Positions 56,415-60,513 of a DNA stretch of 64,000 bases are shown here, piece after piece. Each line of letters opens with the position of its first letter. Position 1 is the first letter of the stretch. A model generated the notes under the pieces. It was not told the DNA's origin. It was given only the letters and a program-made list of their open reading frames with translations, and ran no database searches. Position numbers and translations under genes: made by a program. The DNA is from Myxococcaceae bacterium (GTDB lineage Bacteria > Myxococcota > Myxococcia > Myxococcales > Myxococcaceae), in assembly GCA_044223505.1 (NCBI GenBank), contig JBGALX010000012.1:154174-218173 (forward strand), given 5' to 3'.

Positions 56415-57563
56415 TCACGGTTGAACGGTGAAGTCCTTCACGACACCCATGTGCTGCATGCTCGGAGCCGCGCTGTCGCCCGCGAGCACCGGCACGACGT
56501 CGGTGAGCGGCATGAAGACGCGGCTGTCGAACACGAGCCCGGCGTCGAGCTGTGAGACTTGCAGGCACTGCGACACCAGCACGTGGTCGTACGGCTTGTT
56601 GCGGTTCGCGTTCGTGTTCGGGTTGCCGCTCTGGTCCGCGGGCGGCGTGGGGCCGTCGCTCACGCGCGCGCCCAGCGTCGAGAGCGCGGGCTCGCTCGCG
56701 GTGTCGGTGTTGAAGTCGCCGCCGATGAGCAGGAAGTCGTGGCGCGGCACGTTCGCGTCGAGCCGCGCGAGCAGCGCGGTGGCCTCGGTGTTCCGCTCGC
56801 TCGAGCTCGCCGTGAGCAGGTGCACCGAGACGACGAAGACGTCGCGCGGCCCGGGCAGGTCGACCTGCGCCCACGCGAAGCCGCGGTTGCCGACCTGCGG
56901 GTCGGGCCACTCGCCCGCGTCGAGAATGGGGTAGCGGCTGAGGACTCCGTTTGGAATCTGCCCGGCGCCGCGCGCGTAGCGATAGCCGCCGTCGAGCACC
57001 GCCATGAACGTCTCCATCGCGGCCGGCGTGTTCGTGCCGTAGTTCATCTCTTGCAGCATCACGATGTCGGGGTGCAGGCCCTGGATGATGCGAATGCCGT
57101 GGCCCGGGTCGTACGACTGCCCGTTGCCGCTCGTGAGGTTCGCCGCCATCACGCGCAGCTCGAACGGAGCGCCTGCGCCCCCGGCGAGGCGACAGCCGGC
57201 GTCGTCGAGCGGGACGCTCGCGTCGACGGGCTCTCCAGCGTCGAAGCCTGCGTCGAAGCCTGCGTCGGGCTCGCCCGCGTCGAAGCCCGCGTCGAGCGCT
57301 CCGGCGTCGGTGCCCGCGTCGAACGTGCCCGCGTCGAAGCCCGCATCGGTGCCGGCGTCGAAGGTCCCGCCGTCGGTGCCAGCGTCGGGCGTACCCGCGT
57401 CGGAGCCGGCGTCGAGCGCTCCCGCGTCGAAGCCGGCGTCGGACGTTCCCGCATCGATGCCCGCGTCGGCGCTGCCGGCGTCGTGAGGCCCGGCGTCGAC
57501 CTGCGCCGGAGGCGGGCCGCACGCGCAGAACACCGAGACGACGAAGAGGAGCCGGAGGCGCAC
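56415..57563 (-). CDS. EEP-family lipoprotein with a DAG-repeat linker. Paralogue of 47357..48247.
   Basis: GTG start. Lipobox VFCACG. (D/F)DAG(T/A) repeated about 20 times. EEP core VMAANLTSGNG...IVMLQEM...DHVLVS. Confidence 0.7.
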   Translation of the reverse strand: MRLRLLFVVSVFCACGPPPAQVDAGPHDAGSADAGIDAGTSDAGFDAGALDAGSDAGTPDAGTDGGTFDAGTDAGFDAGTFDAGTDAGALDAGFDAGEPDAGFDAGFDAGEPVDASVPLDDAGCRLAGGAGAPFELRVMAANLTSGNGQSYDPGHGIRIIQGLHPDIVMLQEMNYGTNTPAAMETFMAVLDGGYRYARGAGQIPNGVLSRYPILDAGEWPDPQVGNRGFAWAQVDLPGPRDVFVVSVHLLTASSSERNTEATALLARLDANVPRHDFLLIGGDFNTDTASEPALSTLGARVSDGPTPPADQSGNPNTNANRNKPYDHVLVSQCLQVSQLDAGLVFDSRVFMPLTDVVPVLAGDSAAPSMQHMGVVKDFTVQP

Positions 57564-57595
57564 TGCCGGCGACAGTCTAGACCGCCGTCACGGGA
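57490..57595. repeat. Left copy (S1) of diverged ~110-bp direct repeats. It holds the functional 5' end of the EEP lipoprotein gene and a decayed copy of the last codons of the M50 protease gene.
   Basis: It aligns with 59535..59643. Blocks GGAGCCGGAGGCGC (14/14) and TCTAGACCGCCGTCA vs TTAGACCGCGGCCA, plus the flanking coding similarity. Confidence 0.7.
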
Positions 57596-57720
57596 CATTC
57601 GTCACGAAGGCCCTCTGGAAGTCGCCGGCCGCGGCCTGCGGGCTGCTGCCGACAACCCGAGGCGGCTCGCGCGCCTCGAGTGAAGCCCACCGTGGCGCGT
57701 GGGTTGCTGAGCTCTGGAGC

Positions 57721-58542
57721 ATGCCTCCTCCGATCGGCCAGCGTCCGCCTCCCGTCGTGGCACGTGCTCCACTCCCGAAGGCGCCGCCGCCTCGGCAGCC
57801 TCCGCCGTCGGCGGCTCCGGTCGACACGTTCGAGCCGGCGTCGAGCAGGTCCGACGCGACGGCGCGCGACCGCAGGTGGATTCTCGAGAGGCCCGAGCTT
57901 CGCCGGCTCTCCGAGCCGCAGCGCGAGCGTGTCCGCGAGCTGCTGAGAGACGACACGCTGGTAGGCCCGATGCTCGACGCGCTGCAAGAGAGGGGCGTCA
58001 ACCACGACCAGGTGTTCGAGCTCGCGTCGGACGCGAACTTCGTCAAGGCGGCGCCGTCGTCCCAGAGAGAGGCGTTCCGGCAGCTCGGTGAGTACGCGCA
58101 GAGCGGCGGCGAGATGGCGGGGCTGGGCCTCATCGCGGTCGCTACCGCCGACGGGTTTCCGAAGCTCAGCGAGGCCGACCAGTCGAAGCTGCTCGTGCTC
58201 CAGGGCGAAGACCCGCTGGGGGCGGCGCCGCTGCGCGGGCTGGCCGACGGCCTGTCGAAGCTCACGCTCGACCCGGCGGTGCGCGAAGACACCATGCGCG
58301 CGCTGATCAGCCTCACCAAACGCCCCGAGGCGCTCTTCGCCCTGTCCACCATCGCGCAGAGGAAGTCGTACGAGAGCATCGGGCCCGAGCTGCAGCGGCT
58401 CACGCTCGACGCCGTCGCTCAGCACGGCGGCGAGCCCGAGAAGATGAAAGCGCTGCGCGAGCTGTTCGTCGGCCCCGACCTCGCCGCCGCGTCGCCCGCC
58501 GAGCAGCGGAAGATGATCGTGCGCGCCGTGGGAGGAAAGTGA
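57721..58542 (+). CDS. Pro-rich N-terminus hypothetical protein, paralogue A of a tandem pair.
   Basis: MPPPIGQRPPPVV...; about 30 % identity to the adjacent paralogue B across the C-terminal 200 aa. No signal peptide. Confidence 0.55.
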   Translation: MPPPIGQRPPPVVARAPLPKAPPPRQPPPSAAPVDTFEPASSRSDATARDRRWILERPELRRLSEPQRERVRELLRDDTLVGPMLDALQERGVNHDQVFELASDANFVKAAPSSQREAFRQLGEYAQSGGEMAGLGLIAVATADGFPKLSEADQSKLLVLQGEDPLGAAPLRGLADGLSKLTLDPAVREDTMRALISLTKRPEALFALSTIAQRKSYESIGPELQRLTLDAVAQHGGEPEKMKALRELFVGPDLAAASPAEQRKMIVRAVGGK

Positions 58543-59512: not shown

Positions 59513-59534
59513 CGGTTCAGACCGCCGCCGGCCC

Positions 59535-59625
59535 GTCGCGATCGACCTCGCCCTCGTCGGCGGCGCTCACGCGCGAGAACATCGACACGAGGAAAAGGAG
59601 CCGGAGGCGCGCGGCCCGCGAGACC
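59535..59625 (-). pseudogene. Decayed duplicate of the 5' end of the EEP lipoprotein gene. It is the right copy (S2) of the direct repeats, with the start codon GTG changed to GCG.
   Basis: The minus frame reads (A)RLRLLFLVSMFSRVSAADEGEVDRDGPAAV*, compared with MRLRLLFVVSVFCACGPPPAQVDAGPHDAG in the intact gene. Confidence 0.6.
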
Positions 59626-60513
59626 TTAGACCGCGGCCATCGGCACAGGCATCAGCGTGAGCGCGAAGAAGACGAAGCACACGGCGCACACGACCTTGCG
59701 GCTCGGCGAGAGCGGAAGGTCAGGCACTGCGACCTCGGGGTGGCGGAAGCCGACGACGCGGGTGGTGATGACGAGCCAGAGCACCCAGCCCACGCTGTAG
59801 AACAGCGCGAGAAACGCCATCAGCGCGGCGATGACCTTGCCGAGCGCAATGGCGCGCGGGCCGAACCAGGCGTGCGTGAGGTGGCCGCCGTCGAGCTGAC
59901 CGATGGGCATCAGGTTCAGCATGGTGACGAGCATGCCGAACCACGCGCCCAAGATGACGGGCGTCGCCAGAATCTCGCGCTTGCCGACGAGCAGCCGTGC
60001 GAGGGCGAACGAGAGCAGGTTGTCGCCGAACTCGACGCGCTCACCGACCTGCGGAGCCTCTTGCGTCGTCACCCACCGCACCGCGCCGCGCAGCACCGAG
60101 ACGAGCGACATGTCGCCGGGGAAGCTCCACGCGGGCGACGAGACGTCGAGCGTCGTCGCGTGAGCGAGGCCCCAGATGAGCACCGGAATCGCGACGGCGA
60201 GCCCCGCGAGCGGGCCGGCGGCGCCGATGTCGACGAGCGCGTCGCGCGTGGGAATGCGGCCGCGAATGCGAATGACGGCACCGAACGTGCCGAAGCCGAT
60301 CGGCACGGGGATGAAGTAGGGCAGGGACGACTGCACGCCGTGCCGGCGCGCCATCAGGTAGTGCCCCATCTCGTGGGCGCCCAGGATGCTGAGCGTCGTC
60401 GCGGCGAACACGGCGGCCTCCCACGGAGTGCCGTCGTAATAGAAGCGGTAGCACGACCACGTGGTGACGCACGTGCCGAGGAACAGGAACAGGTGAAGCA
60501 GCGCGCGTCTCAA
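59626..60513 (-). CDS. Site-2 protease family (M50) intramembrane metalloprotease.
   Basis: HEMGHYLMARRHG, NLMPIGQLDGGH. Confidence 0.8.
   Translation of the reverse strand: MRRALLHLFLFLGTCVTTWSCYRFYYDGTPWEAAVFAATTLSILGAHEMGHYLMARRHGVQSSLPYFIPVPIGFGTFGAVIRIRGRIPTRDALVDIGAAGPLAGLAVAIPVLIWGLAHATTLDVSSPAWSFPGDMSLVSVLRGAVRWVTTQEAPQVGERVEFGDNLLSFALARLLVGKREILATPVILGAWFGMLVTMLNLMPIGQLDGGHLTHAWFGPRAIALGKVIAALMAFLALFYSVGWVLWLVITTRVVGFRHPEVAVPDLPLSPSRKVVCAVCFVFFALTLMPVPMAAV

Follow-up and report, generated by a model that had tools for sequence, protein, structure and literature searches.

In the genome of a Myxococcaceae bacterium, a gene for an M50 family metalloprotease and a gene for a lipoprotein with an endonuclease/exonuclease/phosphatase (EEP) domain are separated by two genes on the opposite strand, here called A and B, which are flanked by diverged direct repeats. 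The question that this locus raises is how such a gene pair could enter the junction of two genes and leave both of them intact. Here, we address it for a window of 64,000 nt, that is, the whole stretch of DNA analysed (contig JBGALX010000012.1 of assembly GCA_044223505.1, positions 154,174-218,173 of the forward strand), by comparing it with related loci using tblastn and blastp based on open reading frames; tblastx of the related loci gave thousands of spurious matches in this GC-rich DNA and was not used. We conclude, with a probability of roughly 0.8, that a cassette of about 1.93 kb carrying A and B inserted at the M50-EEP junction and that about 110 bp of the junction were copied to both sides. 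An earlier note on the same DNA had proposed an old insertion with a duplicated target of this length, and the proposal is now supported by an empty site in a related genome and by the reciprocal live and dead halves of the two repeats.

Reciprocal repeat copies and the empty site

The direct repeats, S1 at the EEP side and S2 at the M50 side (Table 1), had been put at about 75% identity, and their similarity persists under proper alignment (MAFFT and local alignment), with about 77% identity, a local alignment score of 90 and a repeat length of about 108-118 bp. Within them, an ungapped core (57527-57590 against 59576-59639, repeat family D4) is 80% identical over 64 nt, and the block GGAGCCGGAGGCGC, already pointed out in the earlier note, is present in exact form in both copies (57548-57561 and 59597-59610). 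When S1 was scanned against both strands of the window, it scored 85 at S2 and had a mean of 21.4 elsewhere (sd 3.5, maximum 36), and no third copy was found within the 64 kb.

Each copy holds one working and one decayed half of the same junction. On the minus strand, S1 reads CCC GTG ACG GCG GTC TAG, 13 nt of spacer and then GTG CGC CTC CGG, which is the start of the EEP gene (MRLRLLFVVSVFCACG); S2 reads CCG ATG GCC GCG GTC TAA, the true end of M50 (PMAAV and stop), again 13 nt, and then a dead EEP head, GCG CGC CTC CGG CTC CTT TTC CTC GTG TCG ATG TTC T+C, which translates as ARLRLLFLVSMF up to a 1-nt insertion. The sequence and a three-way alignment with the empty site thus bear out the assignment made before, in which S1 carries the real GTG start and signal peptide of EEP together with decayed M50 codons, and S2 the real M50 stop together with a decayed EEP 5' end (GCG for GTG, and RLRLLFLVSMF against RLRLLFVVSVF). 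In addition, S2 is frameshifted, as the inserted nucleotide follows the twelfth EEP codon and wrecks both the reading frame and the lipobox cysteines. S1 ceases to resemble M50 at a sharp limit, about 18 nt from the pseudo-stop on its upstream side: farther upstream than the final 15-18 nt of M50, S2 still shows 96% identity to M50 of the related contig described below, and S1 only about 45%.

The empty site was found in L050 (JGI Ga0268299_1000060), a metagenome contig of 421 kb that carries the closest homologue of the EEP protein (P0003). Its gene order is Rieske, 657-aa gene, M50, EEP, DUF6789, DUF4142, 217-aa gene, helicase and VWA, and the M50 stop (gene at 9104-9988) lies 12 nt before the EEP start (gene at 10001-11098), with A, B and the histidine-kinase (HK) gene of the window absent. 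L050 is collinear with the window over about 42.3-64 kb, the only gaps being A-B and, separately, the HK gene, and the proteins are 81% (M50), 88% (Rieske), 91% (helicase) and 84% (DUF6789) identical. Both repeat copies are copies of this single L050-type junction. A metagenome scan with M50 found no relative closer than L050. Misassembly of this record does not account for the arrangement, since window positions 57310-60373 recur with 100% identity in an independent Logan assembly (L049).

The three-way alignment also places the event in time. Over the shared core, S1 and S2 are 77% identical (68/88), compared with 64% for S1 and 59% for S2 against L050, and over the first twelve EEP codons the values are 86%, 62% and 53%, respectively. 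Since the two copies resemble each other more than either resembles the L050 junction, the duplication postdates the split from the L050 lineage, barring homogenisation of the copies by gene conversion.

Both target genes are intact in the window. M50 matches PF02163 with 67.2 bits against a gathering cut-off of 27.2 and belongs to that family; all of its 295 residues align with the L050 orthologue, it is 76% identical to the M50 of locus L001, and its C-terminus, PVPMAAV, is kept among orthologues. Likewise, the EEP protein is a member of the Exo_endo_phos family PF03372 (50.6 bits, cut-off 24.5) and is 68% identical to P0003 over its full length. Its N-terminus, MRLRLLFVVSVFCAC/G, aligns with the lipoboxes of orthologues (LSIAC/G, LFVAC/S, LLAC/G), and the lipobox and signal peptide together suggest that the protein is lipidated.

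Why a junction would need to be duplicated is suggested by a short element that overlaps the M50 stop. In 8/8 EEP orthologues, which have eight different upstream neighbours, the start codon is preceded at 7-10 nt by the end of a TAnnnT hexamer (forms TAGGCT, TACGCT, TACACT, TACGTT, TAAGCT and TAGACT; about 9986-9991 in L050 and 4022-4027 in L057, and also upstream of the EEP starts in L056, L051, L053, L102 and L103), and none of the eight has a Shine-Dalgarno sequence upstream. Such a spacing is what the -10 box of a gene with a leaderless or near-leaderless mRNA would be expected to have. Its conservation suggests that the hexamer is the -10 box of the EEP promoter and that the transcript is leaderless; a literature search found no usable transcription-start data on leaderless mRNAs in Myxococcus. 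The hexamer begins with the TAA of the M50 stop in L050 and also in S2, where the relic box reads TAAGGT. Because the putative -10 box and the M50 stop overlap in this way, an insertion between the genes would destroy the stop of one or the promoter of the other, and both would go on working only if the junction were duplicated.

Table 1 Features of the locus and its surroundings, in positions of the window
Feature	Position	Strand	Remark
Repeat copy S1	57487-57597	-	live EEP 5' end (codons 1 to ~25), 13-nt spacer, dead M50 stop and last 5 codons
Repeat copy S2	59530-59647	-	live M50 3' end and stop, 13-nt spacer, dead EEP 5' end
Inserted cassette, ~1.93 kb	57598-59529	+	absent from otherwise collinear L050; inner edge on the S2 side uncertain by ~8 nt (59522-59530)
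Putative 5' regulatory region of the cassette, 123 bp upstream of A	57598-57720	+	homologous to the upstream region of P0123 (L054)
Gene A, 273 aa	57721-58542	+	between M50 and EEP, opposite strand
Gene B, 321 aa	58547-59512	+	between M50 and EEP, opposite strand
GTG start codon of EEP	57561-57563	-	aligns with EEP orthologue starts in L050, L057, L056, L051, L053
TAGACT, -10-like TAnnnT hexamer	57574-57579	-	10 nt upstream of EEP start; its TAG is the dead M50 stop copy
Pseudo-copy of last five M50 codons	57580-57594	-	CCC GTG ACG GCG GTC against real CCG ATG GCC GCG GTC
EEP-head pseudogene fragment	59530-59612	-	GCG for GTG start; 1-nt insertion near 59575; lipobox cysteines gone
EEP lipoprotein gene, intact	56415-57563	-	Pfam PF03372, E 2.7e-13
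M50 family metalloprotease gene, intact	59626-60513	-	Pfam PF02163, E 1.7e-18
HK gene	55006-56340	-
658-aa gene	60777-62753	-
Rieske-type gene	63075-63947	-

Three further observations concern the repeats and the EEP gene. The sole terminator-like hairpin of the region (59598-59617, minus strand) falls within the dead EEP head that S2 carries; it stands downstream of M50, runs convergently to B and is not significant (1 site against 1.1 expected in shuffles). A derivation of the M50-tail copy in S1 from the 3' end of DUF6789, where locus L002 has CGGCGGTCTAG, was considered and rejected for its wrong orientation and short match. Past the lipobox, the linker of the EEP protein (57212-57507, minus strand) is encoded by a long array of imperfect 12/15/27-nt repeats specifying (D-A-G-x) units (repeat family D1), the length of which varies among orthologues.

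The inserted cassette and its genes

The 2.05 kb that the earlier note had counted between the repeats is refined to an insert of about 1.93 kb that includes an upstream region of its own. In composition the cassette matches its host, with a GC content of 0.709 against 0.713 for the window and GC at third codon positions of 0.894 in A and 0.916 in B, in line with the host genes. The region upstream of A (57598-57720) resembles that upstream of P0123, the only orthologue found (L054, about 618-702), with a local score of 54 against a background mean of 20, and two blocks are conserved, GCCGACAAC(C/G)CGAG and TGGCGCGTG(G/C)GTTGCT, the latter about 25 nt before the ATG. These shared blocks are a candidate regulatory element that would have travelled with the gene.

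A and B are paralogues with Pro-rich N-termini, as noted earlier. At 43% identity (E 1e-60) they have drifted much further apart than S1 and S2, so the pair was already formed on arrival. B has a weak match to PG_binding_1 and consists of a disordered Pro-rich N-terminus, a PG_binding_1-like segment and an all-alpha repeat body; in its AlphaFold (AF2) model, with a predicted local distance difference test score (pLDDT) of 81.8, the middle segment is predicted as a helical bundle between the same disordered and all-alpha parts, and comparing the fold of the model with the PDB yielded nothing at E below 0.1. A has the Pro-rich N-terminus and the all-alpha repeat body without the PG_binding_1-like segment. 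All three family members, A, B and P0123, share the N-terminus M(P/A)PPI(G/S)x(R/N)(P/R)P..VV...AAP.DTFE and have no signal peptide.

P0123 is 46% identical to B and stands alone in an unrelated context in L054, where the flanks tested hold no long repeats and no S-like sequence. A word-indexed homologue search with B returned only B itself, and an exhaustive HMMER search of 1.84 billion representatives returned only B, A, P0123 and weak matches (E 1e-7 to 1e-3) to proteins of 360-830 aa, in the majority of which a strong PG_binding_1 domain precedes similar helical repeats. Because these weak relatives mostly have the strong domain, the peptidoglycan-binding segment is ancestral and was lost from A, so that the part of the earlier note that regarded it as an insert in B does not stand. 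In five of the weak relatives (P0124, P0126, P0127, P0129 and P0133) a similar Pro-rich start and a strong PG_binding_1 domain go together with repeats of the form LAxDxxFxKLxxxxQxxLLxLQ, and P0124 and P0126 end in a domain with an NRGTC motif, which may be a cysteine protease.

Nothing in the cassette or around it points to a mobility apparatus. Neither A nor B matched a recombinase, nuclease, restriction-modification, defence or mobility protein in Pfam, PHROG and PADLOC searches, and neither has a relative among the phage and plasmid records, PHROGs or PADLOC entries searched. Within the insert and the collinear neighbourhood (about 15 kb), where all neighbouring genes have orthologues in L050, no integrase, recombinase or transposase gene was found, and the transfer RNA (tRNA) and Rfam scans of the neighbourhood were empty. 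The search for nearby integrase and recombinase genes and for phage or plasmid homologues of A-B that the earlier note had proposed was thus made and came back negative. Additionally, a repeat scan found no inverted repeats at the insert ends.

Insertions at the M50-EEP spacer and competing histories

A second case at the same spacer comes from MAG-72 (GCA_016793725.1). There, M50 (L001) is followed by genes for an FKBP, an OmpA-like protein and a giant Big_6/Big_13 protein, and an intact EEP gene (L057) is followed by a 199-aa gene, DUF6789, DUF4142 and helicase. L001 breaks off and L057 begins in one and the same repeat-rich gene, where the two contigs overlap exactly over 32 nt, from which it follows that probably about 9 kb separate M50 and EEP in this genome. 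The insert (L001 8886-13884 and L057 1-4035) holds FKBP, the OmpA-like gene, the giant Big_6/Big_13 gene and two small genes. Its M50 side keeps TGA-GCCTCGCGCCGAAG and its EEP side TAG-GCTCGCGCCCG-TTG, that is, the stop/-10 element and spacer are present on both sides, with about 15 bp duplicated and 14/19 identity at fixed positions. Gene order and these junction remnants indicate that MAG-72 probably acquired an independent insertion at the same M50-EEP spacer.

For the window, we favour the following history. In the ancestor the EEP lipoprotein gene would have begun 12-13 nt after the M50 stop, the arrangement that L050 keeps. Once this lineage had parted from that of L050, an already assembled cassette of about 1.93 kb with its own upstream region, A and B, captured as a fragment from the same or a related genome, would have inserted in the opposite orientation, and about 110 bp of target, comprising the last five M50 codons and stop, the spacer and some 25 EEP codons, would have been copied to both sides. 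Each side would then have kept only the half that it needed, the M50 tail in S2 and the EEP -10-like box, start and signal peptide in S1, while the redundant halves decayed, namely the M50 tail in S1 and the EEP head in S2 with its GTG to GCG change and frameshift. As to mechanism, we favour a host process, with modest confidence. Two routes seem likeliest: the host may have repaired a break whose ends were long and staggered, with fill-in and end joining capturing the fragment, or a replicative template switch may have returned about 110 nt behind its point of departure. On either route, selection may have acted as a filter for insertions that duplicate the stop/-10 overlap.

The first alternative is a history in two steps, in which the junction, or a larger segment containing EEP, was first duplicated in tandem and A-B were then inserted between the copies or replaced what lay there, possibly with a 9-bp duplication of AGACCGCCG. 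Tandem duplications are frequent in bacteria, and this 9-mer does occur both inside S1 (57579-57587) and immediately before S2, at its inner edge (59519-59527). However, two independent events would be needed at one spot, no inverted repeats or transposase accompany the insert ends, and a CCGCCG-rich 9-mer is weak evidence in DNA of 71% GC. Moreover, the similarity between S1 and the M50 tail runs on past the 9-mer (TCA-CGGGACA against CCATCGGCACA), which is unexpected if the 9-mer is the edge of the insert and argues against its being a target-site duplication. We consider this history unlikely.

Site-specific or Campbell-type integration comes next, and we regard it as very unlikely. A circular element carrying A-B and an attP-like copy of the junction would have integrated, S1 and S2 would be attL and attR, and the integrase would have been lost or supplied in trans. 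As in genomic islands and prophages, the insert lies between direct repeats, and these reach into the 3' end of a gene, like many island att sites, and the same spacer in MAG-72 received an unrelated cargo, with a short duplication nested within the 110 bp. Unlike such elements, the insert is only 1.9 kb, merely two genes and a promoter region, and there is no integrase, excisionase or tRNA gene in it or in the collinear 15 kb; A and B are without phage or plasmid relatives, and P0123, the only other family member, lies in its unrelated context without a flanking repeat. Of the features of an integrase-mediated island, the locus has the flanking repeats, which are insufficient alone, and lacks the recombinase gene. 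The recurrence at the spacer is also explained without a site-specific enzyme if the spacer is the sole tolerated point of insertion.

The polarity could also be reversed, with A-B and the repeats ancestral to both the window and L050 and the pair lost from L050 by recombination between S1 and S2. Such an exchange between direct repeats would restore precisely what L050 has, and there is one empty-site genome only. Against this, a duplication older than the split predicts that the copies differ more from each other than from L050, the opposite of what is seen (77% against 59-64%, and 86% against 53-62% in the signal-peptide codons), and the same insertion with duplication would still be required, only earlier; we judge this reading highly improbable. 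Finally, chance similarity, convergence of two lipoprotein signal peptides or an assembly artefact might come to mind in a genome of 71% GC rich in low-complexity repeats, but these are refuted by alignment scores of 85-90 against a background maximum of 36, by similarity that extends beyond the signal-peptide codons through the non-coding spacer and the stop-codon region, and by the identical independent assembly and the orthologous single-copy junction in L050.

Returning to the one-step insertion with duplication of its target, several points weigh against it or limit its detail. The comparison is sparse, with one empty-site genome at about 80% protein identity and no closer relatives found. 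Gene conversion between S1 and S2 is possible and could make the repeats appear younger than they are. Because the copies have diverged by about 23%, the original junctions are not precisely readable, and the 9-mer AGACCGCCG could be a junctional microhomology, a short target-site duplication left by a two-step history or a chance match in 71% GC DNA. Further, the molecular route is one that we infer; the case for a -10 box is one from conservation only; and the adjacency of L001 and L057 in MAG-72 is no more than probable, as it depends on a 32-nt overlap inside a repeat-rich gene.

Known systems, recurrent gene gain and significance

The event fits the class termed 'insertion with long target duplication' (Nobusato 2000, Gene 259:99; Furuta, Abe and Kobayashi 2010, NAR 38:2428, PMC2853133), a poorly understood class, and is not categorically new. 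According to PMC2853133, the class was defined by genome comparison for restriction-modification units, and its hallmarks are an insert of <20 kb, direct repeats of >30 bp (46 to >400 bp), a relative with an empty site and the absence of further mobile-element genes; in many cases the repeats include a start or stop codon, and the target genes remain intact. The present locus agrees in each of these respects: a small gene unit without transposase or integrase, an insert of 1.93 kb without other mobile-element genes, repeats of about 110 bp against 46 to >400 bp, a single repeat copy at the L050 empty site between collinear flanks, and a repeat that spans stop and start codons with both target genes intact. 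It differs in its cargo, which is not a restriction-modification unit and has no recognisable nuclease. A cargo of restriction-modification genes was required by the published screens and perhaps not by the mechanism. It differs also in its myxobacterial host, the phylum not being among the taxa listed in the available part of that paper, and in the age of the repeats (about 77% identity, compared with mostly about 93-100% in the tables there). The same authors suspected that double-strand breaks made by the cargo drive the process, which cannot apply here because A-B encode no recognisable nuclease.

Transposons and insertion sequences likewise duplicate their target as direct repeats on both sides, but the duplications are typically <10 bp as opposed to about 110 bp here. 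A short target-site duplication (typically <15 bp in the criterion that we applied), terminal inverted repeats and a transposase are all lacking at this locus. The longer, variable duplications of 19-26 bp of Mycoplasma IS1630, cited in PMC2853133, mark the upper end for such elements and are still far shorter than the one here.

Judged by gene order, genes have been gained repeatedly on the downstream side of M50. Among distant relatives, which also include L065, M50 adjoins either DUF6789 (L002, L059) or the helicase block (L003, L087); in L002 only 3 nt lie between the convergent stops of M50 and DUF6789 (8874-8890), and in L059 the site is at about 1555-1565. As M50 stands directly at DUF6789 or the helicase block in these genomes, EEP is itself an older arrival downstream of M50.

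On the other side of EEP, the HK gene stands with its spacers (54677-55005 and 56341-56414) between EEP and DUF6789 as a second lineage-specific insertion; in L050 the stops of EEP and DUF6789 are 6 nt apart. Its flanks have neither a direct nor an inverted repeat (score 21, below the background mean of 27). The 329 nt at 54677-55005, between the 3' ends of HK and DUF6789, have no gene assigned, a GC content of 0.666 against 0.713 and T-rich runs, and gave no Rfam match at gathering thresholds.

A broader and doubtful proposition is that the short spacer separating the M50 stop from the EEP start is a preferred capture site, at which host repair or replication would repeatedly insert cassettes without an integrase, with duplications of variable length (about 15 bp in MAG-72 and about 110 bp here).

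The locus documents, with an empty-site control, the gain of a small cassette by a myxobacterium without mobile-element machinery, and it extends the class of insertions with long target duplication to a cargo free of nucleases. This weakens the idea of cargo-made breaks and points to host repair or replication. It also illustrates a rule, whereby only insertions that duplicate the junction would survive where a stop codon overlaps the promoter of the next gene. The nuclease-free cargo and this putative overlap, which would explain why a duplication appears, are modest additions and modestly interesting, and the case is a single well-supported anecdote. If the spacer were indeed a preferred capture site, gene gain in the large genomes of myxobacteria could be driven by the host and be independent of cargo, and long target duplication would need no cargo that encodes a nuclease.

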